Positions 6,570 through 42,273 of a stretch of DNA of 44,042 nucleotides are shown here, one piece after another; within the stretch, counting starts at the first letter, position 1; each line of letters starts with the position of its first letter. The stretch lies in IMG/VR virus record IMGVR_UViG_3300012205_000001, positions 1 to 44,042 of that record, one strand, 5' to 3'. Both the position numbers and the translations under genes were made by a program. The DNA is from a virus. The notes below the pieces were generated by a model. The model did no database searches. It saw nothing but the letters and a program-made list of their open reading frames with translations, and was not told where the DNA came from.

Positions 6570-6572
6570 CGG

Positions 6573-6806: not shown

Positions 6807-6811
6807 ATAAG

Positions 6812-6843
6812 GGTCACCTGCCCAAGTCGAGACGGCCTGTCAA
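6812..6843 (-). promoter_or_regulatory. Copy A of conserved 32-bp bipartite motif (TTGACA-N17-CAGGTGACC on minus strand)
   Basis: TTGACAGGCCGTCTCGACTTGGGCAGGTGACC on the minus strand; 24 of 32 positions identical to copy B, including CGACTTGGGCAGGTGACC. Confidence 0.45.
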
Positions 6844-6994
6844 CAGCACTGAACGGCAGGTCAGCTTGCGGGAATTTTCGGGAGGTGCGAACGTTTCAGA
6901 TGCAGATCAGCTCCCGGCCTCATGAACCGTGGGTGGCGCTGGCGTCCCCGGCGCTGGGTCTGCCTAACCAGGGGACGGATGAAGGGACGGCATC

Positions 6995-9447: not shown

Positions 9448-12335
9448 TTGAAGAGACTCGTCGTCGTGACGGTATCGACGCGCCGAGTGGATCCGTTGCC
9501 CTGCCAGGTCACGGATGTCGCGCCACCCTGCTTTCGGGATGTGGACGCTAGATGATACTTGTCCAGCAGCATGACATACTCGACGGCGCCGGCCAGCGCC
9601 GCGATGCCGGTCGTCAGCGTGACGGTGCGACCCGCGCCAGCCTTAGACGCAATCGTGTCATTCGAGGTGAACTGATAGCCCGAATCATTGTGCCGGGAGA
9701 CGATTCGCACCTTGTCGCCGACCGCGAAGTCAACCCCGTCATAGTTGTTCGCGGATTTTGTATAGTGGCTCGCCAGCGTCAGGATCTTCGTCCCGGTGTC
9801 ATAGCCGTTGGTGGCGGCGGTATGATCGACGAGCGCGCAGGGCGACCAAGGCGAAAAGGCGCGGGTATTCGATGAGCCCAGCACGTAGAGCTCGGCCGTA
9901 CATTCGCCGGTCCGATAGTTCTTGGAGATGCCACCGAGAATCGCGTAGACGCCGTCCGCTGCGGTGATTCCACGCGCGCCCGTGAATGGATTGGCGAGTG
10001 TGTTGTCAACGATTTGATGAAATGTCCCTGGACTGAGCATGAGCGCGGTTTTGTTCACGCTTCGATGCCAAACGGTCCATGGGAATTGATAGATAACCGA
10101 GTGGGACGTGATGTGCGGGATCAAAGCCTGCACCTGTGATCCAGTTCCGCCATGCACGCGCGCACCGAAGCTCTTGTCGGGAATGTCTTCCTGTCTGATG
10201 TCATTGGGGAAGAAACTACGCGTGGTCAGTGAGTTAACGATGATATCGGGGGCTGTGAAAGCGCCAGCCAGATTGTCCCAGCCTGTCTGAACCTTCCAGG
10301 AGCCACGCATACTGGTGCGGTCCTGCTTGGCCAGCGTTCGGTCTTCAATCTTCGCCCGATTCGCTTCGGAGAAGATGAACGATGAGCCCTGCGCACTATT
10401 GGCCGCCGCGGCGGCAGTCGGCTGCTGGATGTAACGCAGTCTGATCTTAGAGATGCTCGGATCCCAAAGGATGAATAAGCCGAACTCGCGCGCGATCGCC
10501 TGATAGTAATCATTAAACTTCGTGGTGCGATCGATGACGAATACGCGGCCGACGACTGGATCAATCGGCACGCGAAAATCATCTTTCGAGACGACATTGT
10601 TCCAGCCGATGCCGGCGCCTTGCACCCAATAGTTGAATATCGCATCGGTCGGCGCACCGGTTGACGAACAGAGCATCCGCCCAAGTGAGGCGGCGGCATC
10701 ATCATTTTCTGCAATGACCTGCTCGACGGTTCCGACCGCCCCCAGCGCATTCACATAATACGACTTCGCCCCAAGCAACGAAGCTGGCGTTACTGTGAGT
10801 GAATTCGCGATACTACCCGGCGAGAGAGATGCTATCAGTGCGGCGATACTGCCTCCAACATTGGTCGTATTATTCACAACCAATAGAGAGCCATTTCCCA
10901 GACGAACCAGATACAATGTCGCCGGAACTGACTGCGTATAGGGAATGAATTCCGCAGATGAGCCAGCTGTGCTGAGCATAATAACCAGTGATGAGGCGAG
11001 TTGCAAATAGAGTGGGACATAAATAGATGCTACCGATCTAATTCCCGTCAATGTAGAATTGCTCTGTAGCTCAATGTCCATGCTCTGTGAGTCAGGCTCG
11101 ACAGCATTGTAGGCGAAGGCATTGCGTTCCATCCCCAATGCATCGCCAATATCAGCGAAATCGCCGTCATTGCCCTGGATCAAAATAGTGAATGTGTTAT
11201 TCGTTGTCGTCGGCATTAGTAGACGGAAGTATTCCAGGCCATCCGATTGATTGATGATCGTTTTGAGTGTCAATGATAATTTGACTGCAGACATTGCTGC
11301 GTTCATCGCAGTAATTAACGCCGCCTTTGTATATATCTTTTGTGGAATTTGGAATGGTGGATCAGATGGATTACTGCTATTGCCCAGGCTGCCCCAATAC
11401 GAACTAGAACCGCCGCCGATGGCACCTGTGACGACTTTCCAGCGGCACATTTCTGGCTGCAGTAGATAGATCCCAGGACTGATAGTATCGTGTGCGAGGT
11501 CGGGCGCCACCAATGCCTTGTCGAGATCGCTCGTTATGCTGTCAATCGTCATCTGGAATCCGGTGCCATCATTGCTGGTATCGATGGCCGTCACGCGGCC
11601 CAGCATGATGCAAGTGCCATCGCTCTCGATGCCGGGTGTACTACTCGGGCCAATGCTCCCCATGTAGACTGCGGCGACGCGACCATAGATGTTCATGATG
11701 TCATTGGCGACCCACGTCCCCTCGGTCGGCTGGAGAGCGGAATCGTAGCCACCGATCCGATGATAGGGCGTCGCCGGGAACGTCGAGGAGGCATCGGACG
11801 TGGTCCCCATTGCCGGGTATTTGTTCCGGGTGATGATCTGCATGGTCGTCGTGCCGGCACCGTCATCATAAATTAGCGAGATTCCAACCGCCTCAGCCCC
11901 GACGTAAACGTCGGACTGTGCCGTCCAAGGGCCACCGCCACGGACGAAAAAGGTCGAGGTCGACCCGTCCGCGGCGATGTTGCTAGCGAGTTGGCCGACT
12001 CCATTGGTGAGACTGGAGAGCACGCGCCCTGGGGCGAAGAGTCGCGAAAAATAACCGATGCCCGGATGGGCTGGATCGTCGAAATCTAGCAGCGTCAACT
12101 TCATTCGCTCGGGACGCGCCACGCCGCCGATCAGATCGTTGAAGCGCTGCTCGACATGGTCGTCTGGGATGATAAGTCCGCGCTTGGCCCAGATGGTCGG
12201 GTAGTTCGCCGGCCTGGTGAATGGGTCGGCCGTCCCGGCGATGTTGCCGAAGATGTAGAACGGCACGCCGCTGATCCGCAGCCAGAAATAGGGCTGTAGC
12301 GCCTGCCGGTCGGTGACGTCGGTCTGCACCGTCAT
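9438..12335 (-). CDS. Large tail tip / central fibre protein (965 aa; Tal or gpJ-like by position)
   Basis: Largest ORF; lies two genes downstream of the tape measure protein, the usual position of the tip protein in siphovirus-type tail modules. No catalytic motif recognised. Confidence 0.5.
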   Translation of the reverse strand: MTVQTDVTDRQALQPYFWLRISGVPFYIFGNIAGTADPFTRPANYPTIWAKRGLIIPDDHVEQRFNDLIGGVARPERMKLTLLDFDDPAHPGIGYFSRLFAPGRVLSSLTNGVGQLASNIAADGSTSTFFVRGGGPWTAQSDVYVGAEAVGISLIYDDGAGTTTMQIITRNKYPAMGTTSDASSTFPATPYHRIGGYDSALQPTEGTWVANDIMNIYGRVAAVYMGSIGPSSTPGIESDGTCIMLGRVTAIDTSNDGTGFQMTIDSITSDLDKALVAPDLAHDTISPGIYLLQPEMCRWKVVTGAIGGGSSSYWGSLGNSSNPSDPPFQIPQKIYTKAALITAMNAAMSAVKLSLTLKTIINQSDGLEYFRLLMPTTTNNTFTILIQGNDGDFADIGDALGMERNAFAYNAVEPDSQSMDIELQSNSTLTGIRSVASIYVPLYLQLASSLVIMLSTAGSSAEFIPYTQSVPATLYLVRLGNGSLLVVNNTTNVGGSIAALIASLSPGSIANSLTVTPASLLGAKSYYVNALGAVGTVEQVIAENDDAAASLGRMLCSSTGAPTDAIFNYWVQGAGIGWNNVVSKDDFRVPIDPVVGRVFVIDRTTKFNDYYQAIAREFGLFILWDPSISKIRLRYIQQPTAAAAANSAQGSSFIFSEANRAKIEDRTLAKQDRTSMRGSWKVQTGWDNLAGAFTAPDIIVNSLTTRSFFPNDIRQEDIPDKSFGARVHGGTGSQVQALIPHITSHSVIYQFPWTVWHRSVNKTALMLSPGTFHQIVDNTLANPFTGARGITAADGVYAILGGISKNYRTGECTAELYVLGSSNTRAFSPWSPCALVDHTAATNGYDTGTKILTLASHYTKSANNYDGVDFAVGDKVRIVSRHNDSGYQFTSNDTIASKAGAGRTVTLTTGIAALAGAVEYVMLLDKYHLASTSRKQGGATSVTWQGNGSTRRVDTVTTTSLFKWQ

Positions 12336-19860: not shown

Positions 19861-20319
19861 TCACTCAGTGGGGAACCCGATGAAGGTGCTGACCGTCGGC
19901 GCGGTGCCGGACGGGACCAGAGAGCGGGTGACGAAGCGGCTGAAGTTGTCGCCCGAGACGTTGAAGGCCTCGGTGCTCAGGACGCGCAGAGCACTGACCT
20001 GCGAGCCGCCCGCGCCGGTGGCGGCGATGGGCTGCCCCTTGTTCATGGCGCCCACCCACAGCCAGCGCGGCGAACTGGCAAATACGCCTTGGTCGGCGTA
20101 GCCCAACAGGTCGATGCGGCAGGAGACCGCACCCACCGTGTCGGCGTAATCCACGGCCACCCAGATGCGGTTGGCCGCCATGAGCGGGGCCACGCCGCCG
20201 GTCATGATGTCAGACAGCGCCTTGCCGGCCGCGCCACCAGACGGATAGGCGGTCGTGGTCGTTGAAGCGTTCAGGTCCTGGACCCAGCGGATCCCGCCTT
20301 CTGCGGTTTGGTACCCCAT
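19861..20319 (-). CDS. Hypothetical structural protein (152 aa)
   Basis: Track ORF; start abuts the stop of the upstream glycosyltransferase-like gene. Confidence 0.45.
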   Translation of the reverse strand: MGYQTAEGGIRWVQDLNASTTTTAYPSGGAAGKALSDIMTGGVAPLMAANRIWVAVDYADTVGAVSCRIDLLGYADQGVFASSPRWLWVGAMNKGQPIAATGAGGSQVSALRVLSTEAFNVSGDNFSRFVTRSLVPSGTAPTVSTFIGFPTE

Positions 20320-21152
20320 TACGCGGCCTCTTTGCGCTCGGCCTTGGCCTGCGCGTCAGCGAGCAGTTGCGGCACATGGTCCAGCGCCACGAACCCGTTG
20401 ATATAACGGACCTCGGTCGCGCCGACGGCGCCGCGCAGAGCGGCGGCCTGTTCCTTGAGCGTCGGCGAATCGTCCTTCCAGCTGTCTTCCCAGTGCTGCC
20501 AAGAGAAGGTAAGTGGACCAGTGTCCTTCATGTGCACGGTGCGAAAGCGCGGGTCGGCCAGCACCTTGAAGCCGGCCGCGCGCAGCCGCGTGCAGAAATC
20601 GTAGTCTTCGCCCACCTCGGACACGCTGCCGGTGAACGTTCGCTTGATGGCGAAGCGAAACCAGGGCAGGTCGTCGCGCGTGGCCTTGAGCGCCGAGACG
20701 CGGATCATCATGAAGCCCGTCGCCACCGTCGCTACTTCGACCGGCTGGAACGGAAAGCCGCTGATGACATGGCAGCACTCCTCCGGGTGCTCCTCATGCG
20801 CCACGGTCACCGTGGGGACCATGGGGCGCTCGCGCAGGTAGACCGCGCCGATCGCGCCCACCTCGGGATGCTGATCGAACAGCGCGTGCCAGACATCCAG
20901 CGGGTTGCCGCCGGGCCCGCCCGCCTCAATCCATAGATCATCATCATGCATGACCAGAAAGTCGTACCCGTCGTTGACCGCCTGGTCGGCGATTCGAGTG
21001 CGCGCCATCTGCACCGGGCCACACGTGAACGCGAAGCTGTCCCGGCCACGCTCGAACGTGCGGCAGCCCATCTCCATGTCGCGCATGCTTTTGACGTACG
21101 CGAGGGTTGGGTGTCGCCCGCTCGGCGTGGCGTAGAACAGCCGGTCGGCCAT
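20319..21152 (-). CDS. Glycosyltransferase-like protein (GT-A fold, DxD) embedded in the head-tail module
   Basis: DFLVMHDDDLWIE (DxD-type motif) and GEDYDFCTRLRAAGFKV, reminiscent of family-2 glycosyltransferases. Lies between capsid-proximal and tail genes on the same strand. Confidence 0.5.
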   Translation of the reverse strand: MADRLFYATPSGRHPTLAYVKSMRDMEMGCRTFERGRDSFAFTCGPVQMARTRIADQAVNDGYDFLVMHDDDLWIEAGGPGGNPLDVWHALFDQHPEVGAIGAVYLRERPMVPTVTVAHEEHPEECCHVISGFPFQPVEVATVATGFMMIRVSALKATRDDLPWFRFAIKRTFTGSVSEVGEDYDFCTRLRAAGFKVLADPRFRTVHMKDTGPLTFSWQHWEDSWKDDSPTLKEQAAALRGAVGATEVRYINGFVALDHVPQLLADAQAKAERKEAA

Positions 21153-28073: not shown

Positions 28074-28282
28074 AGGCGGCCCATCAGCATGCGCGCCGGC
28101 GGCCGGATGCAGATGTCGCTCACGGCCCGATGCGCGACTCCCATGCTGCGCTCGACCTTTTCGTCGCTCGTCATGGCGCCATGCTGGACCACAACCTTGA
28201 CGTGTCCGTGGTGCTGGCAGTCAGGGCAGGCCCAGGGCAAGAACCATTCGATCGGGCCCTTTTGCGGCATGGTGCCTACCAC
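27971..28282 (-). CDS. Hypothetical small protein with Cys/His cluster (103 aa)
   Basis: PWACPDCQHHGHVKVV suggests a metal-binding motif; stop/start is close to the upstream glycosyltransferase. Confidence 0.35.
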   Translation of the reverse strand: MVGTMPQKGPIEWFLPWACPDCQHHGHVKVVVQHGAMTSDEKVERSMGVAHRAVSDICIRPPARMLMGRLWRFELGRPIWMLKKGETQETFHPEKWPPWGKTN

Positions 28283-29148
28283 GGGATTTCACCAAAGCGA
28301 CTCAGCATCTGTCGGTGCTCCTCCTCGCTCTGCTGGCGCGCGCCAAGGTCGCCCTGAATCATCGCCATCCCGCCGGCGGGATTGGTGGTCCGGATAACGA
28401 GTGGCTCACGGTCGCCAGAATTGACGATAACTGAATGCCGAGAGATATTCTGCAGCCAGCCATGGCGGACGGTCAATGGTTGGCCATAAAAGTAAACCAC
28501 GGGCGCGTCCTCGTCTACTAGGTGCGCGCGCTTCACGCCGTGCTTGTTCGCGCGCCCCAGCCATTCGGTGTCGACGTGGAATCGAAATCCCTCGTCCATC
28601 GGGCCGATCTCGTCCCATACGGCGCGATGCATGAGCCAGCCCGACGGCGTGGCGAAGTCATTGACGCGCTGGAAGTTGCCGGCCACGTCGACCTCGCGCT
28701 GATTACTGGTCACCATGTCGACGCGGGAGAGCCACGGGATTTGTGCAGCCAGCTTTTCGGGGCACCAGATGTCATCGTCTTCCAGGAACGCCAGCACGTC
28801 GCCGGTGGATGCGCGCACAGCGGCATTGACGGCGGCAGCTTGGCCGCCCGCGCCAGCGAATACCTGCGTAACGCCCTTGAAGCGCTCAGGTAGCAGCCCT
28901 GTGTTCAGCTGATCGCGAAAGGCTTGCATACCCATCGTCGCTGCCGCGATCGGATTGGCTGCGTTGACCTTTATCGGCGAATCCATTCCCACGACGAATT
29001 CAATTTCATGTTCGCCCGCGGCCGACTGCCGGTGCACCGACATCAGCGCGCGGTCGAGATAGAGATTCCCAGTCTCGCTCATAGGATTGACCTGCAAGCG
29101 ACTAGGTGTAATGACGCTGATTTTCACCGGCACACATCCGGAATCCAA
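28276..29148 (-). CDS. Family-2-type glycosyltransferase (GT-A fold)
   Basis: N-terminal ISVITPS, then GQAAAVNAAVRASTGDVLAFLEDDDIW (nucleotide-sugar binding region with DxD-type EDDD), typical of GT2 enzymes. Confidence 0.65.
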   Translation of the reverse strand: MDSGCVPVKISVITPSRLQVNPMSETGNLYLDRALMSVHRQSAAGEHEIEFVVGMDSPIKVNAANPIAAATMGMQAFRDQLNTGLLPERFKGVTQVFAGAGGQAAAVNAAVRASTGDVLAFLEDDDIWCPEKLAAQIPWLSRVDMVTSNQREVDVAGNFQRVNDFATPSGWLMHRAVWDEIGPMDEGFRFHVDTEWLGRANKHGVKRAHLVDEDAPVVYFYGQPLTVRHGWLQNISRHSVIVNSGDREPLVIRTTNPAGGMAMIQGDLGARQQSEEEHRQMLSRFGEIPW

Positions 29149-29422
29149 TGGTCATCGTCAACGCTGGGCTGCCATGGTTCGGACGTCTCAAGACGCGGCG
29201 GGGCGCACTGAAGACAGGTACAGCCAACAGAATGCGGGGATGTCATCAGCGCGTTTTCTTTGACGGCCAGGCGCAGGCGGCCAAGTGCATGATCGATTGT
29301 GTCTGCGGGTCGCTTCTCAGCAACGGACGTTGACATATGCGGCAGCGGGCCGTCTACCGTCTGTTTGCCATGCCACCATCCATCTTGATGAGGCCATTTA
29401 CATCCAACAAATCCACACATGA

Positions 29423-30868
29423 TCATCGCTGCCGCTCCAGTTCTTCGACGTACGGTCGATAGATAATCTCTCCCTGCCGCTTGGTCACTTGGTATTCGGG
29501 CCGCGTGATGACCGTGTGGCCATCGGCCAATTCGCGGTATCCCGAATAGTGAAAAGCCACGAGCGAGCGGTTGCCGAAGTACGGAACGCCGCCCCGGACA
29601 TCAAGCGCGCGGCCATGGATCGCCCACGGGCCAAGGTTTGCTCCTGGAGCCATAACCACATGCGCGCCATGCTTTTCCGGCCACGCGTCAAGGTATTTTT
29701 GGTCGCCATAACGCAACTGCCTTTCGGGAATTGGGACCTGCTCCACACGGTCATAACACCACTCTCGGCATTGCGCCGCCCACTCTTCGACAATCTCACG
29801 ATTCGCGATATAGACGAGGCCCACATTGTATTTTCCAAATACCTCATGCGTCTCAACTGTCGGCCCCGGTAACCCGTGCGATGCGCTGGCGAAGTTGTGC
29901 GGGAACACTGCCGCAGGTGCGGCGCCAATTTCTGCAAAGACTGGCTCTGGCGATGAATGGAACATTATGTCAGCATCGACGTAACAGACGGGACGGCCGG
30001 TCGACTTCATGACCTCTGCGATCCACCACGGACCGAGCGTCCACATCGTCTCGACCCTGGTGCGTTCCGGTCCAGGCAGGATGCCGATCGTGCCCGGCAG
30101 CTGCGTCGGGCATCCAACTGATTCTGCCCAATCACGCACGCCTTCGTCCCACGACAGAATATGCAACTCGAACGGCTGGCAGTGTCGCAGCATTGAGGCG
30201 TGGAGCGCCTTGAGGCGAGTGAGATAATTGCTATCGGCATATGTGGCGTAGACGCGCGGCCGCGCACAGACATAGGTCGTCGATCCACCGTCAGCTCGGA
30301 AAAAATCGCGACCTTGGAATCCAGTCTCCGCCATCGCGGCCATGAGGTCCATATGATTGACGTCCCAGGCCCGGAACGTCTGCCCGTAGCCATGCGTCTC
30401 GGTGCGTTTTGTCGCTATCGCCAGCGGCACACGATGAAGAATCACCCAGCGTCGCGACCGCGCGCATAGATCGGCAAGATGTATCTTCCAGTCGTCGGCA
30501 TGCATGAGGGCGCAGCCGTCGATCACGACGTCAAACGAACTCGGCAATCCGCATAAATCAAATGGCGGACGATCATGGCTGGCGAAGCAAACGAATTCGC
30601 TCTCCGGGTATCGCTCGAGCGCAACCTTGATCGCCGCTGGGCTGATGTCACAGCCGCCATAGCTTCGATATGCTATCCCCTGCCGATCCAGGACCTCACG
30701 GTTGTACCCGCTCGCGCAGCCGACCTCCCATAGCTCGCCGGGGCATTGCGTGGAGCGCACCGCATCGGCCAGGGCGCGAAACTGGATCGGCAGCGGGTCT
30801 TGCTGCAGCTGCTGATCTACCAGTTCACGCTGGGCGGCGGCGATCTCAGGCAGCATCCAGGGGTTCAC
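29423..30868 (-). CDS. Two-domain protein: N-terminal class I SAM-dependent methyltransferase-like, C-terminal nucleotide-sugar transferase-like
   Basis: LWEVGCASGYN (glycine-rich motif I-like) and DVVIDGCALMH in the N-terminal half; CYVDADIMF (DxD-like) in the C-terminal half. Confidence 0.5.
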   Translation of the reverse strand: MNPWMLPEIAAAQRELVDQQLQQDPLPIQFRALADAVRSTQCPGELWEVGCASGYNREVLDRQGIAYRSYGGCDISPAAIKVALERYPESEFVCFASHDRPPFDLCGLPSSFDVVIDGCALMHADDWKIHLADLCARSRRWVILHRVPLAIATKRTETHGYGQTFRAWDVNHMDLMAAMAETGFQGRDFFRADGGSTTYVCARPRVYATYADSNYLTRLKALHASMLRHCQPFELHILSWDEGVRDWAESVGCPTQLPGTIGILPGPERTRVETMWTLGPWWIAEVMKSTGRPVCYVDADIMFHSSPEPVFAEIGAAPAAVFPHNFASASHGLPGPTVETHEVFGKYNVGLVYIANREIVEEWAAQCREWCYDRVEQVPIPERQLRYGDQKYLDAWPEKHGAHVVMAPGANLGPWAIHGRALDVRGGVPYFGNRSLVAFHYSGYRELADGHTVITRPEYQVTKRQGEIIYRPYVEELERQR

Positions 30869-31872
30869 AAACTCCTCGCCAGCTCGACGAGCCGCGGAAT
30901 GCGCGATTCATAGGTGTGCGCGAGCAGAACATCTTGGGCCGCCTTCTCATCATCACCATAAGCGGCCTTCATGATCCAATCGCGCGCGTGCGCGGCGCTG
31001 ACAAACTCATTCGGCCCCCACCAGAATTGATCGATGAAAGCTTCGCCATCGCTCACCGGCTCAGCTCCCATCCCGGCCGCTTCATAGAGTCGCATGGCAT
31101 TCGCCGCGCCCTTCGTCCATTCGGCATGGACGTTAAAGACGGTCCTTGCTCGCGCCAGCGTTTTGAAATATTCGCGCCCAAATACCGGCGGCATCACGGT
31201 GACGATATCTTTCAGCTCCTCCAGCAACTGCGTCCGGCGTACGTGGTTAGGCCCGACGGTCCCGACAAAGATGCAGGCTAAGTCACGCTGGACGCCCATG
31301 CCGCAGGCCCGCGCACGGGTATCGAACGCGAGTGGCATATATTCACCCCGACAGCCCTTCGCATGCGCTTCGTCGATCATCCAGGGAATCGATGAGATGA
31401 CCAGGTCATAGGCGGGCGATCCATCGCGCTTGCGGACATCCCATGGCATCGGATTGCAGATGGCGGCAACCTGGGCGATCCGCTTGCCCTGCCCCTTTAT
31501 CGGCATCCCATAATTGTCGAGCACGAAGGCGACGCAGTCAGGCCCATCGATCTCAAGCGCAAACGCGCCGCCCGATACATTCACTGAGGTCGCATCCTCG
31601 CCGAACTCCCGCAGATAGTGCGAATAGCTATCCAGGTGTGAGCAGAAGAACGCCTCGTGGCAATAGAGCGAATCGGCAACTAGCCATCTCATCGCGTCCT
31701 CACGAATGTCCACGCATCGGAATATGCTTCGGGCATCGCCTCGTCTCGAATGCCGAAAAACATCCGCTGCGAGTCGGCACTCGCAAAGCCGATGCATTGC
31801 CTCGCAGCGCCGTTGATTATGACGGCGGCATTTAGATGCCGACCATCGTGGTCGAGTTCGCCGGTGATCCAA
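30865..31872 (-). CDS. Glycosyltransferase-like protein (GT-B/CgeB-like C-terminal region); likely starts at internal Met near 31692
   Basis: ACIFVGTVGPNHVRRTQLLEELKDI and NAMRLYEAAGMGA resemble the C-terminal domain of group-1-type glycosyltransferases. N-terminal 60 residues are Arg/Cys-rich and overlap the upstream gene. Confidence 0.4.
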   Translation of the reverse strand: MDHRRTRPRWSASKCRRHNQRRCEAMHRLCECRLAADVFRHSRRGDARSIFRCVDIREDAMRWLVADSLYCHEAFFCSHLDSYSHYLREFGEDATSVNVSGGAFALEIDGPDCVAFVLDNYGMPIKGQGKRIAQVAAICNPMPWDVRKRDGSPAYDLVISSIPWMIDEAHAKGCRGEYMPLAFDTRARACGMGVQRDLACIFVGTVGPNHVRRTQLLEELKDIVTVMPPVFGREYFKTLARARTVFNVHAEWTKGAANAMRLYEAAGMGAEPVSDGEAFIDQFWWGPNEFVSAAHARDWIMKAAYGDDEKAAQDVLLAHTYESRIPRLVELARSL

Positions 31873-32952: not shown

Positions 32953-33306
32953 TCACAGCCCAGCCCCCATCGCGACCAACTCCACGCGGCCGACGACCGC
33001 GGTGAGTAACCAGAGTCGCCCCATCCAGTTCCCGACTATCTCGCTCGCCGGCGCCGTCGTGAACCATTCCCGTTTCGCCTCCATCAGCTTGGCCAGCCGC
33101 CGCAGGCCGGTCAGCACCGTGGTATGATGGAGACCGCCGAGCGCTTGCCCAATCTCTGGCAGCGACAGACCGATAACCCTCAGCCTGAACATCGCTTCCC
33201 ACCGCACCAACACGCGGCGCCGGCAACGATTTGGCGCCAGCATCGCGCTGACCGACAGCCCATGGGAGGCGGCCACTGCCCGGACGATGGCGCGCGTGTC
33301 AGTCAT
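32953..33306 (-). CDS. DnaA C-terminal (domain IV)-like helix-turn-helix protein
   Basis: LSLPEIGQALGGLHHTTVLTGLRRL matches the conserved DnaA domain IV DNA-binding signature (S.P.IG..FG.RDHTTV). Confidence 0.5.
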   Translation of the reverse strand: MTDTRAIVRAVAASHGLSVSAMLAPNRCRRRVLVRWEAMFRLRVIGLSLPEIGQALGGLHHTTVLTGLRRLAKLMEAKREWFTTAPASEIVGNWMGRLWLLTAVVGRVELVAMGAGL

Positions 33307-34202
33307 GTCGTTCCTTTCGCGCCCGCGTGGCGCATTCGTCGCATCTCGGCCAGTTGTTCAGGCGTCATCGCCTTCGTCGGCTTGGTCAGCCATTCTGGCT
33401 CTGGTGCCGGTGGATCCTCGCGCATTGGCGGGCGCCGGAAGGCGTCGAAATTTTTCTCTAGCAGCGCGAGTGGGTGTCTCTTCTCGATGTAGAGCTTCTC
33501 GGTCGACCGCAGGTAGCGCTTGATCGCCGGCTCCAACTCGGCCAGGTCGGGTAGCCGCATCAGCGCGTCGCCGGTCGCTTGATCCCATCGCCCCTGCCGC
33601 CATGGTAGATGCCAGCGCAGCTTCCAGTGGTGTTCGTACAAGCGGAGCAGTTCGGTCGTTGTCCTGGGCGGCCTATCTCCTGCTGTTGCGTCACGCGTTG
33701 CACCGTGTCCGTCACGCGTGTCAGAAATTGGGGGAGACTCCGGATCCGGATCTTCTTTGATCTGGATCTGATCTGATCTGCTTGGGCTGACCGCGGCTGA
33801 CGATGGCTGACTCTGCTGACTTGTCCTAGACAGCTTGGCCCGTTCGCGTTGGCGGCGCTTGTTCAGCCTGTTCCCCTCGCGCCGCAAATCTTCATCGCGC
33901 ATCTCGCGGAACCGGCGATAGTTGATCAGCGTCCAGCCGCGCTCCGCGACCGCTATGCGGCGTCCTTCGTGCTCTTGGCTCCGACTGCGCCGGTCGGGTG
34001 CCAAGAACGCAGCCAGCGCGCGCTCCGTGGCCTCCAGCGACACGTTGGCGCGGCGGGCGAGACCGTCAACGCTGGCCCCAACGTAACCGGTCCCGTCGCA
34101 CATGGCCAACATCGTGATCCACACCAAGCGCGTCTCGTTGTCCTGCGACCAAATCGTCGAATCGGTGATCGACGAGAATAACTTGGTGAAGGTTTCTGAC
34201 AT
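33303..34202 (-). CDS. Hypothetical early protein, possibly replication-associated (299 aa)
   Basis: Track ORF; N-terminal globular region followed by a charged low-complexity linker; upstream of the DnaA-like gene. Confidence 0.4.
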   Translation of the reverse strand: MSETFTKLFSSITDSTIWSQDNETRLVWITMLAMCDGTGYVGASVDGLARRANVSLEATERALAAFLAPDRRSRSQEHEGRRIAVAERGWTLINYRRFREMRDEDLRREGNRLNKRRQRERAKLSRTSQQSQPSSAAVSPSRSDQIQIKEDPDPESPPISDTRDGHGATRDATAGDRPPRTTTELLRLYEHHWKLRWHLPWRQGRWDQATGDALMRLPDLAELEPAIKRYLRSTEKLYIEKRHPLALLEKNFDAFRRPPMREDPPAPEPEWLTKPTKAMTPEQLAEMRRMRHAGAKGTT

Positions 34203-34267
34203 GTCCCAGACAGTCTCAGACGATTACACGATTGGTGTCAACCGAAATCGCTGCGTCATCCCGCCAC

Positions 34268-35290
34268 CTAGCAGAAGAGCCCACGCTGCGCGGTCCGCGC
34301 GCGCGCCAGCTGCGCGTACTCGGGCGAAAGCTCGATGAGGATCCACTGCCGGCCGAGCGCCTCGGAGACCTGGCCGACGGTACCGCTGCCGCCGAACGGA
34401 TCGAGCACGATGCCGCCGGCGGGGCAGCCGGCGAGAATGCAGGTCTCGACCAGCTTGCGCGGAAAAGTCGCGAAGTGGGCGCCGCCGTAGGGCTCGGTTG
34501 CGATCGTCCAGACGGATCGCTTATTGCGCTCGTCGACCAGACCAGCGATGGCCCCCGAGAAGGAGGCGTTCTGCTTGACGCGGAAGCCGGCGCCGCGCCC
34601 GAACCGCGTCGACGGCTTGAGGCCCTGATCGTCTCGCCCTTCGTCCTTGGGGCCGGCCTTGGGGTTGACGCCGTCGCCGCGCGGATGAGCTCTGCCCGTG
34701 ACCGGCTCCTTGATCGCCGCAGCGTCGTAATAGTACCGCTCGCTCTTCGACAACAGGAACACGAACTCGTGCGCCTTCGTCGGACGATCGGTCACCGCCT
34801 CGGGCATCTGGTTTGGCTTCGACCAGATGATGTCGCAGCGCAGGTACCAGCCATCGGCCTGCAGCGCGAAGGCGACGCGCCAGGGAATGCCGACCATGTC
34901 CTTCGGCTTGAGGCCGTGGATCGGTATGCGGTTCGGCTGGGTCATCGGGCCCATGGCCGCCATCGCCGTGTGCTTGCCGGCGTGCGATCCGTCGCGCAGG
35001 GCCCGCGTCTTCTTGCGCAGGATCGCCGCGCCGGTTGCGTAGCAGTCGCCGAGGTTCAACCAGAGCGTACCGTCTGGGCGCAGCGCGCGCCGCACCTCGC
35101 GGAACACCGCCACCAGCTCGGCCATATACTCCTCGGGCGTCGCCTCGAGTCCGATCTGGTCGGCCACGCCGTAGTCGCGCAGGCCCCAGTACGGCGGGCT
35201 CGTTACCACGCAGTGGATCGAGTCGTCTGGGATCTCGCGCAGCAGAGCACGGCAGTCGCCGACGTGGATCTCGCGGGTGGCCAGCGTCAC
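34268..35290 (-). CDS. DNA methyltransferase (N6-adenine or N4-cytosine, beta-class amino-methyltransferase)
   Basis: Catalytic motif TSPPYW near the N-terminus and SAM-binding DPFGGSGT near the C-terminus, the order typical of beta-class enzymes. Confidence 0.85.
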   Translation of the reverse strand: MTLATREIHVGDCRALLREIPDDSIHCVVTSPPYWGLRDYGVADQIGLEATPEEYMAELVAVFREVRRALRPDGTLWLNLGDCYATGAAILRKKTRALRDGSHAGKHTAMAAMGPMTQPNRIPIHGLKPKDMVGIPWRVAFALQADGWYLRCDIIWSKPNQMPEAVTDRPTKAHEFVFLLSKSERYYYDAAAIKEPVTGRAHPRGDGVNPKAGPKDEGRDDQGLKPSTRFGRGAGFRVKQNASFSGAIAGLVDERNKRSVWTIATEPYGGAHFATFPRKLVETCILAGCPAGGIVLDPFGGSGTVGQVSEALGRQWILIELSPEYAQLARARTAQRGLFC

Positions 35291-35434
35291 GCGGCGCGCT
35301 CCGCGGGCCGAAGTCGCGTCATCGCGTCGATCTCCACAGTTCCCGCGCCGCCCAGTCGACGAGCCCGGCGAACGCGAGAATCGTGCACGCGCCGACGAAT
35401 AGGAGAGCGAGGAACGGGATGGGGGCGCGGGTGG

Positions 35435-36331
35435 TCAAGCCCGCATCTCCAGAAGTTCTTTCAGGATCGCCGCGATCTTTGGCCAGTATTTTTCATCCGA
35501 CGCGGCCATAGCGGCCCGATCGGCCCGAGCGGCCCGAGCGGCCCGAGCGGCCAGAGCGGCCCGATCGGCCAGAGCGGCCAGATCGGCCAGAGCGGCCCGA
35601 GCGGCCCGAGCGGCCCGATCGGCCCGAGCGGCCAGAGCGGCCAGATCGGCCAGAGCGGCCCGATCGGCCAGAGCGGCCCGAGCGGCCAGAGCGGCCCGAG
35701 CGGCCCGAGCGGCCCGAGCGGCCCGATCGGCCCGAGCGGCCAGAGCGGCCAGATCGGCCAGAGCGGCCCGATCGGCCAGAGCGGCCCGAGCGGCCCGAGC
35801 GGCCCGAGCGGCCAGATCGGCCAGAGCGGCCCGAGCGGCCAGAGCGGCCAGAGCGGCCAGAGCGGCCAGAGCGGCCCGAGCGGCCCGAGCGGCCAGAGGA
35901 GGATGCTTTCGAAGCTCTCCTGCCAACCGCGACAGTTCTCGCGTGTGTTCACTGTCGCCGTCGCAAAGCGCAACCGTCGCATCGATCGCATCGGGTAGGA
36001 TCTCGCGCAGGCCCCAGTCAACGAGACGGACCGCGCGCTTCTCCTCGATCTCATCCGTCGACCGAGAGAACAGCAGCGCTGGCCCGAACTCTGGCGCGAG
36101 ATGCTTTCTCCAAGCCGCGCTCGCGTCCTGAATGCCGACAGTGAACCCATGTAGGACCTGCGAGGCCGTCTCTGGACACGAATACAACCTCGGGTCGAGG
36201 TCGACCCATGCGCGGAATTCCTGCCATGCGCAACGGTCACCAGGCTTACCCGTGCCGCAACCCGCGCGCAGATTCAGCGAGTCAAGATACTCGGGAGTCA
36301 CGTAAGCTGGTAGCTTCTGGATCTCGGTCAT
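35435..36331 (-). CDS. Hypothetical protein with a tripeptide repeat tract A-(A/D)-(R/L) of about 130 aa
   Basis: N-terminal non-repetitive domain (MTEIQKLPAYVTPEYLDSLNLRAGCGTGKPGDRCAWQEF), then AARAALAALAALAAL...ADRAAMAAS encoded by the 9-bp repeat array, then a short C-terminal tail. Confidence 0.5.
   Translation of the reverse strand: MTEIQKLPAYVTPEYLDSLNLRAGCGTGKPGDRCAWQEFRAWVDLDPRLYSCPETASQVLHGFTVGIQDASAAWRKHLAPEFGPALLFSRSTDEIEEKRAVRLVDWGLREILPDAIDATVALCDGDSEHTRELSRLAGELRKHPPLAARAARAALAALAALAALAARAALADLAARAARAARAALADRAALADLAALAARADRAARAARAARAALAARAALADRAALADLAALAARADRAARAARAALADLAALADRAALAARAARAARADRAAMAASDEKYWPKIAAILKELLEMRA
35500..35897. repeat. 9-bp tandem repeat array (about 44 units; variants cggcccgag, cggcccgat, cggccagag, cggccagat)
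   Basis: Read directly from 35500-35897; in-frame within the gene 35435..36331. Confidence 0.85.
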
Positions 36332-36546
36332 GGGTTGGTCCTTTCGTCTTTATGGAAATTGCATCTGTCGCACGGCCAGCCGACTACCACCTTGCCAACC
36401 CGCACGGTCGCGCCCTTCGCCCGCCAAGCGGCGATGTGCTTGGCGCACAACCACTCGCAGAGATCGAACGCGTGGGTGATTTTGCAGATGCGGACCACAG
36501 TTAGAACGCGCGATTTATCTGCAGATGGCGCAGACGTCGGCTTCAT
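36328..36546 (-). CDS. Hypothetical Cys-rich small protein (72 aa)
   Basis: Track ORF; CEWLCAKH and WPCDRCNFH motifs. Confidence 0.4.
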   Translation of the reverse strand: MKPTSAPSADKSRVLTVVRICKITHAFDLCEWLCAKHIAAWRAKGATVRVGKVVVGWPCDRCNFHKDERTNP

Positions 36547-38213: not shown

Positions 38214-39212
38214 TCAGTCCTCTCCTGGTTGTCGTTGGTCAACGCCGTCCGCGATGGCGAGAAGCGCGGTCACCACGTTGGCGGCCTGCTGTTCGGTCAG
38301 TTCGGCGCGCGTCTTGACGCCATACTTCGTCCACAACCAATCCTTCGCCAGCGCCGGCCGCCAGCCGAGGCGTTCGATTTCGCGGCCAATCTCTTCGATC
38401 TGTTCGCGGCGCGCCGTCGGCGTATCCGGCAGTGATGCTGACTTTCCGTTGCTGACCGCCGCCCCACCGGCCGCCCAGCGCGCAAGCTGCTCGCCGGTCT
38501 CTTCGCTGAGTGGCGCCGTCTCTTTAAACATGCCGCGGAATTGCCCCGGCAGCTTGATGATTGCCTTCTCGCCCATCTCCTCACTGTGCCATGTCGGTAC
38601 GCCATCGCTGCCAGGATAGAGCAGGCAATTCGCCGTCATCTCATAGACAAATTCCTCGCCCGCAATCGGCATCCAGCCGCGCACCTTCGGCTTCGCGCCG
38701 CTGAGGTCCATCTTCTCTTTCGCGCGAAAACAGAACACGAAATTGATCGGCATCTGAAGAATTGTGTTCAGCAGGCGCCTCCGCTCGGCCTTCGGCTTCT
38801 GCCATCCGCTCATTTGCGCTTTCTCGGGCGGCACGCGCCAGAGCGCCGCGAGTCGCTGCGTCTCGGCGTCGTGCATTTCCAGCACGCCGCCGGGGCCTTC
38901 ATGCTCATGGCTCGCGCTGTCGATGACGATGGTCTGGGCCCCCTTGGCGGCGCAATGTTCAATCGCCGCCAAGTAATCCAGGGGCCCGAAGGGGGCGGCG
39001 AAGGGCAGATGACGGAATTTGAACTTGTCGGCATAGTGCAGCGCGCGACGGGCCTCCGTATCGATGACGTAGATGTCGCCACCGGCAACGCGTTGGATGC
39101 CGGTCGCCAGGCGCAGAGCGGAGAAAGTTTTCCCGGCACTTGAACTTCCAGTCAGGCCGATCAACAGCGGCGTCCGTTCTCTTTTGGCCTGGAAGTCTTC
39201 AAACGCTCGCAT
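38214..39212 (-). CDS. RecA-fold ATPase, Sak4-like (AAA_24-type) recombination protein
   Basis: Walker A LIGLTGSSSAGKTFSAL and hydrophobic strand plus acidic Walker B TIVIDSASHEHEG; size and neighbourhood (nuclease, HNH) typical of phage Sak4-like proteins. Confidence 0.6.
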   Translation of the reverse strand: MRAFEDFQAKRERTPLLIGLTGSSSAGKTFSALRLATGIQRVAGGDIYVIDTEARRALHYADKFKFRHLPFAAPFGPLDYLAAIEHCAAKGAQTIVIDSASHEHEGPGGVLEMHDAETQRLAALWRVPPEKAQMSGWQKPKAERRRLLNTILQMPINFVFCFRAKEKMDLSGAKPKVRGWMPIAGEEFVYEMTANCLLYPGSDGVPTWHSEEMGEKAIIKLPGQFRGMFKETAPLSEETGEQLARWAAGGAAVSNGKSASLPDTPTARREQIEEIGREIERLGWRPALAKDWLWTKYGVKTRAELTEQQAANVVTALLAIADGVDQRQPGED

Positions 39213-39681
39213 GTGCTCTCCTCTTTGTCCACGGCTTCCATGTCAATTCCATACCAGGAATTCCAAGTCCATGACGGCGCATGTGCTCTCCCTGGGTAAT
39301 CACTTCCAGGTTTGCCGGGGAATTGTTCGACTTGTTTCCATCGCGATGATGAACGATCTCGCCAGCGAGAAGCTTCCGCCCGAGCATCTCTTCGGCAACT
39401 ACCCTGTGTTCGTGTCGGCCCATGCGTTTTACATATCCGTCGCCCCGTCCACGTCCGCGTTGCAAGTCGCCACGTTGGGCGGCGCTCACCCGCGCCCGTC
39501 TGCACATCTCTGCGCTTCCGATAGAATGATGCCAAATGCACGACTTCGAACAGAACTTAGCCACTGGTTTGCGAGTAACAAACCCCCGAGCGCACTGGAT
39601 GCATTCACGCTCCTGGTAAGTGCGACCGTCGTCGCCCTTGAATATCCGGATTACGCGCGCCAGCCTAGAAGGGATGCTCAT
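39199..39681 (-). CDS. HNH endonuclease (likely starts at internal MSIPSRL)
   Basis: EIVHHRDGNKSNNSPANLEVITQGEHMRRHG carries the His-Asn-His catalytic arrangement. Track ORF 39199..39891 has an Arg-rich, implausible N-terminus. Confidence 0.6.
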   Translation of the reverse strand: MSIPSRLARVIRIFKGDDGRTYQERECIQCARGFVTRKPVAKFCSKSCIWHHSIGSAEMCRRARVSAAQRGDLQRGRGRGDGYVKRMGRHEHRVVAEEMLGRKLLAGEIVHHRDGNKSNNSPANLEVITQGEHMRRHGLGIPGMELTWKPWTKRRAHASV

Positions 39682-40489
39682 CGGAGACCTCCATCGCTGC
39701 GATCTGCTGGTCCATCTCCTCGGCGAGCTGCCATGGCTTGGCCTCCAGCGGCGCGGTGTTCTCGTAGCCGGGCCACTGCCGGGACCGCACGCAGGCCGCC
39801 CAACTGGCCTTTGCCCGCTTCCATTTGCGCGCGCCCAACTCACGCAGACTGCCGCCCAGGGACCGGATGTTGACCGCGTGAGGCGGCTCACATTCGACGA
39901 AAATGAACCGCATCTTGACCAGCCCGGCGAGCTCGGGATTGTTCGTTTCGACGCCCTCGACGTAGGCCGCGTGCTGGATATCGGCGCCGTAGGCCACGAT
40001 TGATCGCGTGATCGATTCGTCGCTGGCGTCGTCGCAGGTCTTCAGGTCGTAGATGATCCCATCCGGCATGATCAGGTGGTCCAGCACACCCTTGCATTCG
40101 CAGCCGTCCGATTCCCACACCTGCGTGACCTGACTCTGCCCGCGGAATTCGAGCCCGCGCGCTACGAGTCGATCGCGAATGGCCTGGACGGTCGCAGTCG
40201 CCGCCTCGAATTTATCGACCAGCACCGCAATCCGCCCAGCCGCCTCGGCGGCATCGCGCTGGTCCTTCGCCGCGTTGGTGCGCCAGTCTTTCGCATTGAT
40301 GACTTCGAGCTTGGGACCGCTGCCCAGAAGCATGGCATCGATCAATCGCCCGCGGCGCGTGGCGTCTGTCTGCTCGCCCTCCTCCGCGCCGCCGAGACGA
40401 TGTCGCTGCCACGCATGCAGCGGCGAGCGCCGCAGCAGAATGCTGGCAATCGACGGCGAGAGACGCATTGGTTCCGTTGTTTGATCCAT
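39665..40489 (-). CDS. Putative PD-(D/E)xK-type nuclease (likely starts at internal MDQTTEP)
   Basis: GIIYDLKTCDDAS resembles the D...(D/E)xK core; adjacent to the Sak4-like ATPase, as in phage recombination modules. Track ORF 39665..40798. Confidence 0.4.
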   Translation of the reverse strand: MDQTTEPMRLSPSIASILLRRSPLHAWQRHRLGGAEEGEQTDATRRGRLIDAMLLGSGPKLEVINAKDWRTNAAKDQRDAAEAAGRIAVLVDKFEAATATVQAIRDRLVARGLEFRGQSQVTQVWESDGCECKGVLDHLIMPDGIIYDLKTCDDASDESITRSIVAYGADIQHAAYVEGVETNNPELAGLVKMRFIFVECEPPHAVNIRSLGGSLRELGARKWKRAKASWAACVRSRQWPGYENTAPLEAKPWQLAEEMDQQIAAMEVSDEHPF

Positions 40490-40491
40490 GA

Positions 40492-40761
40492 TCACTCTCC
40501 CAATTCGTAATCGCCGACGAGTAGCATCTGCACCAGGTTGTTCGTCAGCTCGTCGACCTGCGCGTCGCTGATGGCCAGCGAACCGTAGGCCGGATCGCGC
40601 CGTTTCTCGATCAGCGCGCTGACGTCTGCGATCAGGCGCGCGACGAGGCGGCGAGGGCCTGGCCGTTCCATCGCCGCAATCGCAGCGAGCACGGGGGCCG
40701 ATTCGCGGAAGGGGTTCACTGACGCACCGGCCGCTTCGGACAGATGCCTTTGTGCGCACAT
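40492..40761 (-). CDS. Hypothetical protein (89 aa)
   Basis: Track ORF; its stop abuts the start of the nuclease gene. Confidence 0.35.
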   Translation of the reverse strand: MCAQRHLSEAAGASVNPFRESAPVLAAIAAMERPGPRRLVARLIADVSALIEKRRDPAYGSLAISDAQVDELTNNLVQMLLVGDYELGE

Positions 40762-40894
40762 AGCGACCGTTTAGCGCCCGCCAGACCGCCATGCACATCG
40801 CAGCGGAAATAGGTGTCGCTGCAATACGGGCAGCAGACGCATGACGTGTTGGGCGAGCAGGGCTTCTTTATGCTGCCCTTGTTACAGGGGCGCA

Positions 40895-41110
40895 TCACGA
40901 TTGCACCCCCATCGCCGCCGGTTGCCACTCGCCCAGGATGATCATGCCCTCCCAAAATAGCGCACATCGCGCGTGGACCCTGGTCCCGGCGACGATCAGC
41001 AGCGCGCCATCGATGTCGGTCAGGCATGCTTCGCAGGTGTCGGGTATGGCGAGTGAGCAAACGCCGCAGCTGGTACCGCAGCAGGACGGGGCGCAGTCAG
41101 CGTAGGTCAT
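40895..41110 (-). CDS. Hypothetical Cys-rich small protein (71 aa)
   Basis: CAPSCCGTSCGVCSLAIPDTCEAC; overlaps 40716..41060 in another frame, so only one is likely real. Confidence 0.3.
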   Translation of the reverse strand: MTYADCAPSCCGTSCGVCSLAIPDTCEACLTDIDGALLIVAGTRVHARCALFWEGMIILGEWQPAAMGVQS

Positions 41111-42273
41111 GTGTCACTCTCCGCCGCGCATGCCTTGATGTCTTCCAACGCCCGTTCATTGCTCGCGAAAAAATGCGGCACGCGGCCGGTGGATGCGCGA
41201 TAGATCATCGTCGCCGCACGCTGCGAATCATACTTCGCCTCCAACTTGGCCCCCGCTTCGCCCGCATGGACTATCGCCCAACCGCCGATACAGTGTGTCA
41301 TTGTGCAAGAGTGCCAGGTAGACATTTCGAGCCGCCCGCCGCCGCCAGTGACAGATTCCAGAATCTTGGCGTCCAGTCTATCAACCACAGGCACGTCCGG
41401 GTTGCGCTCGCGGTATTTCAGCATCCGCGCGCGACGGGCCGCCTTGACTTCTTCGGGCGTCGTCGGGCGGACGTATGGCTTCGCTGGATCTGAGACCGGA
41501 ATGGTTATGCCTATGGCGCCGTCGAGGCTGGCGCCGACGAGGCTGGCGCCGTCGAGGTTGGCGCCGACGAGGCTGGCGCCGTCGAGGTTGGCGCGGCCGA
41601 GGCTGGCGCCGACGAGGCTGGCGCCGACGAGGCTGGCGCCGTCGAGGTTGGCGCCGTCGAGGCTGGCGCCGACGAGGCTGGCGCCGACGAGGCTGGCGCC
41701 GACGAGGCTGGCGCCGTCGAGGTTGGCGCCGACGAGGCTGGCGCCGACGAGGCTGGCGCCGACGAGGCTGGCGCGGCCGAGGCTGGCGCCGTCGAGGTTG
41801 GCGCCGTCGAGGCTGGCGCCGACGAGGCTGGCGCCGACGAGGTTGGCGCCGTCGAGGCTGGCGCCGTCGAGGTTGGCGCCGTCGAGGTTGGCGCCGTCGA
41901 GGTTGGCGCCGTCGAGGCTGGCGCCGACGAGGTTGGCGCCGACGAGGCTGGCGCCGTCGAGGCTGGCGCCGTCGAGGTTGGCGCCGTCGAGGCTGGCGCC
42001 GTCGAGGTTGGCGCGGCCGAGGTTGGCGCGGCCGAGGCTGGCGCCGTCGAGGTTGGCGCCGTCGAGGTTGGCGCCGTCGAGGTTGGCGCCGTCGAGGTTG
42101 GCGCCGTCGAGGTTGGCGCCGTCGAGGTTGGCGCCGTCGAGGTTGGCGCGTTTTCCGCCAACCTCGTCTCTGCGCCACATGTCGTGTAGCCGTCGGACTT
42201 CGGCCAGGTCGGCTGTCGATATCGTGCGTAGTTCCATGGTCACTCCTTGATCAAGTGTGAAATCAGCCGCCAA
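41107..42273 (-). CDS. Pentapeptide-repeat protein (about 43 consecutive A-(N/S)-L-(D/V/G)-(G/R) repeats) with C-terminal globular domain
   Basis: ANLDGANLDGANLDG...ASLVGASLDG tract; pentapeptide-repeat family signature A(D/N)LXX. C-terminal ~130 aa are non-repetitive and Cys/His-containing. Confidence 0.7.
   Translation of the reverse strand: MAADFTLDQGVTMELRTISTADLAEVRRLHDMWRRDEVGGKRANLDGANLDGANLDGANLDGANLDGANLDGANLDGASLGRANLGRANLDGASLDGANLDGASLDGASLVGANLVGASLDGANLDGANLDGANLDGASLDGANLVGASLVGASLDGANLDGASLGRASLVGASLVGASLVGANLDGASLVGASLVGASLVGASLDGANLDGASLVGASLVGASLGRANLDGASLVGANLDGASLVGASLDGAIGITIPVSDPAKPYVRPTTPEEVKAARRARMLKYRERNPDVPVVDRLDAKILESVTGGGGRLEMSTWHSCTMTHCIGGWAIVHAGEAGAKLEAKYDSQRAATMIYRASTGRVPHFFASNERALEDIKACAAESDT
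41510..42150. repeat. 15-bp tandem repeat array (units ggcgccgacgaggct / ggcgccgtcgaggtt and variants) encoding the pentapeptide repeats
   Basis: Read directly; more than 40 consecutive 15-nt units. Confidence 0.85.

Follow-up and report, generated by a model that had tools for sequence, protein, structure and literature searches.

A 9-bp tandem array in a phage gene from an unnamed protein family that retains an alanine-rich repeat but not its sequence

The window analyzed here, meaning the whole 44,042-nucleotide stretch of IMG/VR virus record IMGVR_UViG_3300012205_000001, looks like a phage genome with essentially all of its genes on the minus strand. One of these genes (Table 1) contains a 9-bp tandem array that encodes a long, alanine-rich repeat tract. 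An earlier note, made from the sequence alone, had placed the array inside an otherwise ordinary-looking protein, a description that undersells it: the flanks of the array define a large unannotated family, and the repeat tract is the constant feature of that family. On sequence comparison, the window protein is a member of a large, unnamed phage family related to gp58 of Burkholderia phage BcepB1A, and its tract is the extreme case, the longest and most regular, of the family's defining feature. What this family conserves is a short-period, Ala-rich repeat as such, whatever its sequence. The interpretation that we consider probable, with moderate confidence, is that the array codes for a hypervariable, Ala-rich, and probably α-helical arm on the conserved helical core of a phage early-region accessory protein.

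Tandem Repeats Finder (TRF) reported the array as a period-9 repeat of 44.6 copies (score 571), and parsing in the coding frame resolved a perfect in-frame block of 42 contiguous units that belong to exactly four types, with the consensus GCC-G[C/A]T-C[G/T]G. These encode Ala-Ala-Arg (AAR; GCCGCTCGG, 17 of the 42 units), Ala-Ala-Leu (AAL; GCCGCTCTG, 15 units), Ala-Asp-Arg (ADR; GCCGATCGG, 6 units), and Ala-Asp-Leu (ADL; GCCGATCTG, 4 units). Variation is confined to position 5 (C/A) and position 8 (G/T), and the remaining seven of the nine columns are invariant across all 42 units. The difference between the TRF copy number and the count of perfect units, which is the count as assembled in the window sequence, is due to degenerate units at the edges (PL before the block, AAM-AAS after it). 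The figures given in the earlier note, about 44 copies of four variants and a tract of roughly 130 residues, agree with this description: the perfect tract spans 126 residues, or about 132 to 137 when the edge units are included. A two-unit probe matched 42 times within the array and once elsewhere, against a chance expectation of 0.27. At a higher order, a 10-unit block recurs at an offset of 12 units, and the longest stretch repeated exactly within the array measures 98 nt, with the copies offset by 108 nt; this looks like the footprint of a recent multi-unit duplication. The middle codon is GCT or GAT in every unit, both here and in the array of the closest relative (locus L003, 2120..2358); GCT is the rarest Ala codon in the genes of the window (8%), and this usage fits descent of the Asp and Ala units from one another. 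The array strand is CCG/CGG-rich and, as single-stranded DNA, is slightly better folded than shuffled sequences (z = −2.64).

Interruption of the minus-strand reading frame, raised earlier as a possible objection, was not observed: the open reading frame (ORF) is intact, with the array in frame, and no other long ORF here fits the order of the surrounding genes. We accepted this frame on the strength of homology, since codon-position G+C (GC) content does not tell the two antisense frames apart; the minus-strand product shows homology to other proteins both before and after the array. A collagen-like Gly-X-Y reading of the plus strand (GPS/GPI/GQS/GQI) was rejected. It exists only in a 588-amino-acid (588-aa) ORF that runs antisense to a Pfam-supported methyltransferase gene and was judged spurious, and the opposite strand of the closest relative, at L003, reads PRE/PRD and SAR/AAR, not Gly-X-Y. 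The variable region of a diversity-generating retroelement was likewise rejected, as no scanned ORF carries a reverse transcriptase domain, the window holds no second copy or template of the repeat, and the bases that vary in the coding strand are C/A and G/T.

Table 1. Coordinates of the repeat gene, its parts, and other features of the window
Feature	Coordinates	Strand	Description and evidence
Repeat-protein coding sequence	35435..36331	-	298 aa plus stop, ATG start, uninterrupted ORF; homologues
N-terminal all-helical domain (predicted)	35894..36331	-	aa 1-146, motif LRAGCGTGKPGDRCAWQEFRAW; alignment A3, AlphaFold2
Tandem array, 42 x 9 bp	35516..35893	-	aa 147-272, A-[A/D]-[R/L] tripeptides; TRF, unit parse
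Period-9 repeat including edge units	35497..35898		TRF
C-terminal tail	35438..35515	-	aa 273-298 (AAMAASDEKYWPKIAAILKELLEMRA), two decayed units and then the conserved C-terminal helix; alignment, pLDDT
Spurious ORF	34232..35998	+	588 aa
N6/N4 DNA methyltransferase	34268..35290	-	PF01555 E = 5.6e-46; phrog_67 E = 6.7e-73
ORF beyond the methyltransferase	33303..34202		299 aa
GATCTG/GATCT-rich tandem repeat	33743..33780		period 16, 2.4 copies
Cys-rich ORF	36328..36546	-	72 aa (C21, C30, C34, C59, C62); stop overlaps the ATG of the repeat gene (ATGA)
Pentapeptide-repeat protein	41107..42237	-	376 aa; PF00805 E = 6.8e-58
Period-15 repeat	41514..42149		TRF
Perfect array, 42 x 15 bp	41518..42147		A-[N/S]-L-[D/V/G]-[G/R]

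The size of the family emerged from searches with the flanks. The N-terminal 146 residues alone retrieved one relative, P0001 (44% identity, E = 5.5e-23), which carries a repeat tract at the equivalent position made of 6-bp units. A two-sequence profile of the window protein and P0001 retrieved 29 proteins, and a 30-sequence profile run against 1.84 billion cluster representatives matched 3,648 of them at E ≤ 1e-3, 1,787 at E ≤ 1e-10, and 48 at E ≤ 1e-30. A profile built from a divergent subgroup added 237 further matches, all of them named "hypothetical" and none with a precomputed Pfam domain. Neither the window protein nor the sampled members matched a Pfam or NCBIfam family (for the window protein, no Pfam family at E ≤ 0.01, the pentapeptide family PF00805 included), and the sole PHROG matches, all weak, were to families that have no assigned function (3416, 13065, and 8332). 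A profile scan of genome contigs returned no relative, and our literature searches found no description of the family. Near-identical sequence was absent as well: megablast of the 33- to 43-kb region and tblastn of the whole protein against GenBank phages gave no match, and IMG/VR contained no exact match to the array flank.

Two isolated phages encode members, BcepB1A (gp58, YP_024894.1, annotated as a "hypothetical novel protein") and Ralstonia phage RS-CA1 (XDQ96087.1, also deposited as hypothetical). The window protein itself had no direct tblastn match to either; both proteins share the homologous N-terminal domain of the family (tblastn E = 7e-5 and 2e-22 to family members) and its C-terminal helix, both carry Ala-rich periodic tracts (AARAAAD... 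and AAWDAARDAA...), and both come from phages of soil proteobacteria. Their tracts differ from that of the window in being about 55 to 75 aa long, degenerate at the DNA level (for BcepB1A, 77% matches and 16% indels in TRF), and composed of other units with other periods. Members of the family generally lie in the small-gene early or replication regions of phage contigs. The RS-CA1 member is the exception, being located between annotated endolysin and holin genes (L020, 3977..4633).

Nearly every full-length member inspected has the same three parts, namely an N-terminal domain (N-domain) of about 140 to 146 aa, an Ala-rich short-period tract, and a C-terminal helix. The N-domain core reads G-x-G-[ST]-G-x-x-G-D-R-C-x-x-Q-E-x-R-A-W, thus combining a Gly-rich loop with a D-R-C-x-x-Q-E motif; its columns are invariant or nearly so in alignment A3, where L21, G26, G28, G31, C34, Q37, R40, and P53 are invariant. 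The C-terminal helix is amphipathic (..[IL]..LL.M..), with KIAAILKELLEMRA of the window protein aligning with PVALIAELLAM.E, and a motif of the type ..PVALIAELLAM.. is kept at the C terminus in nearly all complete members. The Ala-rich low-complexity tract follows the N-domain directly in nearly all of the 171 sequences surveyed, so the comparison with homologues that the earlier note had proposed places the tract at an equivalent position in relatives, with unit, period, and length differing in nearly every member. The dominant period is 4 in 78 of these sequences, 3 in 54, and 2 in 16. The low-complexity stretch has a median length of 53 aa (n = 171), and the 137 aa of the window protein make it the longest. 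The tracts invariably combine Ala with a few residues from the set D, R, L, Y, S, W, and G, arranged as A-[A/D]-[L/R] (the window protein, P0012, and P0030), as [L/R/I/S]-[A/D/G] dipeptides (P0001-P0009), as AAS[Y/D/R] (P0015, P0017, P0031, and P0058), as AA[Y/D] (P0019-P0022), as AA[W/G/R][A/D] tetrapeptides (P0026, P0034, and P0114), or as runs of A and D (P0013 and P0016). Some members (P0011, P0009, and P0018) are almost without a tract.

Perfect short-unit arrays in coding sequence had been suspected of changing length, and the family supports that expectation, both in the gap between its median and the window tract and, most strongly, in close relatives. Four clusters formed at ≥90% identity contain members of unequal length, and each of these near-identical pairs differs by a single in-frame indel within the tract: 42 aa between P0104 (232 aa) and P0166 (274 aa) and again between P0066 (238 aa) and P0167 (280 aa), each with 0 mismatches outside the indel; 41 aa between P0097 (242 aa) and P0165 (283 aa), with 13 mismatches; and 12 aa between P0034 (234 aa) and P0168 (246 aa), with 5 mismatches. 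The two 42-aa differences are exactly 126 nt, which is near common assembler k-mer sizes, and each could be either a real indel of a higher-order unit or a collapse on the scale of a k-mer.

The same observation enters into the question of whether the window array, though it exists, was misassembled, with its length or unit order collapsed or expanded. Such an error would be easiest in an array like this one, with only four 9-bp unit types and a 98-nt exact internal repeat; the count of exactly 42 units equals that of a second array in the window (Table 1), the 126-nt indels of relatives could themselves be k-mer artifacts, and no identical sequence turned up in the other collections for a cross-check. 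On the other side, arrays just as regular occur in relatives that were assembled independently (L003), and the JGI and Logan assemblies, made independently of each other, give the same P0014 (L004 and L005, respectively). Both the frame and the conserved C-terminal helix are kept across the window array, whereas a random misjoin would preserve the frame one time in three, and reads of at least 150 nt would span the longest internal repeat. We consider misassembly of the window array improbable.

The closest relative, P0012 (L003), illustrates how the DNA of these arrays, which assign one codon to each position, turns over while the encoded pattern stays. Its flanks are 56 to 63% identical to those of the window protein, and its array consists of 26 units of the same four tripeptides, written with the codons GCG-G[C/A]T-C[T/G]C. 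Relative to the window, every unit of all four types thus carries a different synonymous base at the third position of codons 1 and 3, whereas both polymorphisms that change the amino acid (A/D and L/R) are retained. Shared tripeptides in spite of codon replacement imply homogenization of the array together with selection, or recurrent mutation together with selection, for the mixture of A/D and L/R. Elsewhere in the family, each residue in the tracts at L001 and L008 is written with one NNC codon, in 6-bp units, P0025 (L019) has a decayed period-3 tract of [A/G][A/D/T/V][L/R/P] in mixed codons, and at L004 the DNA repeat is degenerate and yet the tract is Ala-rich. The amino acid composition thus persists after the DNA repeat has decayed, a pattern that favors a role at the protein level, and the comparison of these sequences points to arrays that turn over by concerted evolution while the amino acid pattern is kept.

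These data bear on the view that the tract is a neutral low-complexity linker, grown from a slippage-prone, GC-rich (GCN)n seed and tolerated as junk whose length and sequence have no function. That unit, period, and length are unconstrained across the family is what this view would predict; a few members nearly lack the tract, the order of units has no amphipathic design, and the CCG/CGG-rich strand with its folding score is consistent with a purely mutational origin. It accounts less well for a tract that recurs in nearly all of about 170 inspected members of a family of thousands of clusters, at the median length given above and always in the restricted composition described, and the sharing of four tripeptides by the window protein and P0012 despite synonymous replacement at two of three third positions needs selection at the amino acid level. 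A neutral linker is, in our judgment, unlikely, although the idea retains some weight.

Alternatively, the array might act at the DNA level, as origin iterons like those within the lambda O gene, as a recombination or packaging signal, or as a decoy for DNA-binding proteins, and lie in a reading frame by chance. Lambda-type origins lie in the linker-coding region of an early gene, and the window array, too, consists of DNA repeats in the interdomain part of a replication-region gene, within a module that has a DnaA_C-like helix-turn-helix (HTH) protein, an AAA_24 ATPase, a PD-(D/E)XK exonuclease, and an HNH endonuclease nearby. The resemblance ends at the sequence of the unit, which is not conserved and is unrelated among homologous loci: it is 9 bp in the window, a different 9 bp at L003, 6 bp at L001 and L008, and degenerate at L004 and L019, where tracts retain their amino acid composition and lose the DNA repeat. 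Nor does the strongly conserved N-domain, which would correspond to a DNA-binding domain, covary with the unit sequence. Unlike ori-lambda, the array has no AT-rich flank (GC content of 0.72 over 35 to 36 kb), and 42 units are, to our knowledge, far above the iteron numbers that have been described. We think a DNA-level element scarcely probable.

To examine the predicted fold, we modeled the window protein with and without homologues. The single-sequence model was poor (predicted local distance difference test [pLDDT] score of 54), whereas AlphaFold2 with the 30-sequence alignment gave a mean pLDDT of 81.8 and a predicted template modeling score of 0.67. The all-helical N-domain was predicted with a pLDDT of 91 to 97 over most of its length, and the last 28 residues (271 to 298) with a pLDDT of 90 to 96; a Foldseek search with the N-domain found no matching fold in the PDB. 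Between these ends, residues 148 to 295 were placed into three long helices (148-186, 188-220, and 224-295). High confidence at both ends together with their coconservation suggests that, in the model, the C-terminal helix packs on the N-domain, and the predicted tract would then be an excursion, either a hairpin or a three-helix arm, instead of a linear spacer that joins two distinct domains. The long helical spacer suggested earlier is accordingly borne out in part: the helices are there in the model, but as a prediction only, with mid-tract pLDDT values of 49 to 78.

Several points weigh against reading the tract as a helical arm with a function. Confidence is low where it matters most (pLDDT of 49 to 66 in the mid-tract), AlphaFold tends to call any Ala-rich sequence helical, and tracts with a dipeptide period such as LDLALDLA are not obviously helical. 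The hydrophobic moment of the tract was not above that of unit-order shuffles at 95, 100, 103, 105, or 110 degrees (z of −1 to 0.5), and its only excess, at 108 and 132 degrees, consists of side-bands of the block duplication. An amphipathic or coiled-coil design in the unit order found no support, and with no amphipathic signal there is no positive evidence for specific packing, though the tract may be packed through its Ala residues. The near-tractless members indicate that the fold does not require the arm, and the arm could be neutral; moreover, given the 126-nt indels, part of the length polymorphism could be assembly collapse.

If the array does encode such an arm, the arm would be inserted between two parts of the core, the N-domain and a C-terminal helix that, in the prediction, folds back against that domain. 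Slippage during replication, or unequal recombination among the units, would alter the arm's length and the order of its units, and the 108-bp duplication inside the window array would be one example; the phage's own recombination genes and the folding of the array can be set beside a slippage or recombination origin. A uniform, short-period, Ala-rich helix could pair with itself in any register, and any number of units would then be tolerated. Self-pairing of this kind would also explain why low-complexity, periodic sequence persists in the tract.

Slippage-driven coding repeats are already known, and variable-number tandem repeats in coding sequence are familiar as in-frame intragenic repeats that vary by slippage or unequal recombination, for example, in surface proteins of bacteria and fungi. 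The window array resembles them in having a unit that is a multiple of three, near-identical units, indels of whole units, length polymorphism between close relatives, and concerted evolution. It departs from them in that the unit is only 3 aa long, in that the protein looks like a cytoplasmic phage early protein without a signal or an anchor, and in that the repeat unit within the family is replaced and not merely changed in number. The unusual point is a family in which a repeat is always kept but its sequence is not. Taken together, replaced units, homogenized arrays, and a kept amino acid pattern point to selection for a variable arm and not for a particular sequence. Ala-rich helical hairpin proteins, such as the hyperactive type I antifreeze protein "Maxi" (PDB 4ke2), are also among the closest known systems.

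A short-period Ala-rich repeat is the only conserved trait of the middle third of a protein found in thousands of clusters and annotated in no library. The family thus offers a clean natural setting in which to study how slippage drives the evolution of phage proteins, and it merits a name and a profile model. As to function, we suggest only tentatively, and would not count on it, that the arm is a fast-evolving interaction surface or spacer in phage-host conflict whose diversification is selected; that it acts as a ruler in such conflict is speculation. If the arm were an interaction surface, phages would have a new means of encoding diversity, one for which no dedicated enzyme is required.

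The earlier note had also raised a functional link to the adjacent DNA methyltransferase. In one form of such a link, the repeat protein would be a subunit of the enzyme that confers specificity or regulation, and methylation would be tuned by its length. In the window, the arrangement invites this reading: the methyltransferase gene lies on the same strand, 144 bp transcriptionally downstream of the repeat gene, with no terminator-like site in the gap, and the two genes are probably cotranscribed. The Asp-type units contain GATC, six of them within the palindrome CCGATCGG, and an ORF upstream of the family gene at L001 has DPPY and FPGTG motifs. The link is not borne out by the wider family, because across about 13 distinct loci a verified DNA methyltransferase is the direct neighbor in the window alone and in no relative. 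Other neighbors were found at L003, L004/L005, L006, L008, L013 (BcepB1A), L014, L015, L016, L017/L018, L019, and L020, and searches of Pfam, PHROG, NCBIfam, and PDB and with BLASTP did not support the L001 ORF as a methyltransferase. At greater distance, C5 methyltransferases lie about 3 kb from the family gene at L007 and about 2.5 kb from it in RS-CA1, and a weak MTS match lies three genes off at L006. Since the early regions of phages often encode methyltransferases, the adjacency in the window is best read as coincidence. GATC is not depleted elsewhere in the window; at 6.5 per kb against 3.4 expected it is over-represented, and we rejected GATC or CGATCG in the Asp-type units as methylation or restriction targets, since GATC is not avoided. 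A conserved methyltransferase link was rejected as a feature of the family, a functional partnership in the window itself is very unlikely, and the link should not be propagated into annotation.

The repeat gene lies within a replication and recombination module, with a DUF3799 PD-(D/E)XK exonuclease, an HNH endonuclease, and an AAA_24 ATPase encoded upstream; beyond the methyltransferase follow the 299-aa ORF and then a DnaA_C-type HTH protein. Immediately upstream, the 72-aa Cys-rich ORF overlaps the start of the repeat gene (Table 1), and translational coupling of the two would be possible. This ORF matched no family and gave only a marginal PHROG hit (E = 0.008). A small gene like it is not obviously conserved upstream in relatives.

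The second array of the window lies 5 kb from the first, in a gene for a pentapeptide-repeat protein that also has an unassigned C-terminal domain of about 130 aa. Its units are of six types, with variation at only 3 of 15 positions. Pentapeptide-repeat proteins (PF00805; Qnr and MfpA type) resemble the window repeat protein as short-period tandem repeat proteins; the window repeat protein differs from them in having a period of 3 instead of 5, a predicted helical structure instead of a β-helix, and no Pfam match. At L007, pentapeptide-repeat genes (6373..7806 and 8800..9951) alternate with family members (7870..8709 and 10001..10699), the interleaved genes have a leader peptide and upstream sequence in common, and P0046 looks chimeric, starting like a pentapeptide-repeat protein and continuing with the family N-domain. 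The pentapeptide-repeat protein is a possible thematic partner of the repeat protein. Among the related loci L001 to L018 (about 13 distinct ones, as some contigs are represented more than once), only the window and L007 have a pentapeptide-repeat gene, and we treat the association as a lead and not as a finding.

An extension of these ideas, which we regard as a long shot, is an "accordion" diversity module in which a conserved core displays the arm and slippage rewrites its sequence with very few residue types (Ala and D, R, L, Y, S, and W), producing a binding or decoy surface directed against host defense or a host target. The equally perfect pentapeptide-repeat array and the L007 pairs would then be two arms of one repeat-based counterdefense strategy. 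This small set of residues is close to the minimal codes of Tyr, Ser, Ala, and Asp that suffice for synthetic binding surfaces. With such a module, variants of the surface would always be present in a phage population.

Elsewhere in the window, genes for portal-like and SU10-like capsid proteins, glycosyltransferases, and a Laminin_G_3 tail-type protein were identified. With the GTG start given for it, the HNH_3 endonuclease ORF shares 227 nt with that of the DUF3799 exonuclease (39199..39891 and 39665..40798, minus strand); given an HNH domain at aa 161 to 205, its true start is probably further downstream. The GATCTG/GATCT-rich tandem repeat (Table 1) falls within the 299-aa ORF. Three glycosyltransferase-like genes and a 481-aa protein with an S-adenosylmethionine-dependent methyltransferase domain are encoded at 20319..21152 and 28276..31872 (minus strand), and their predicted products suggest modification of DNA, of the virion, or of the host surface.

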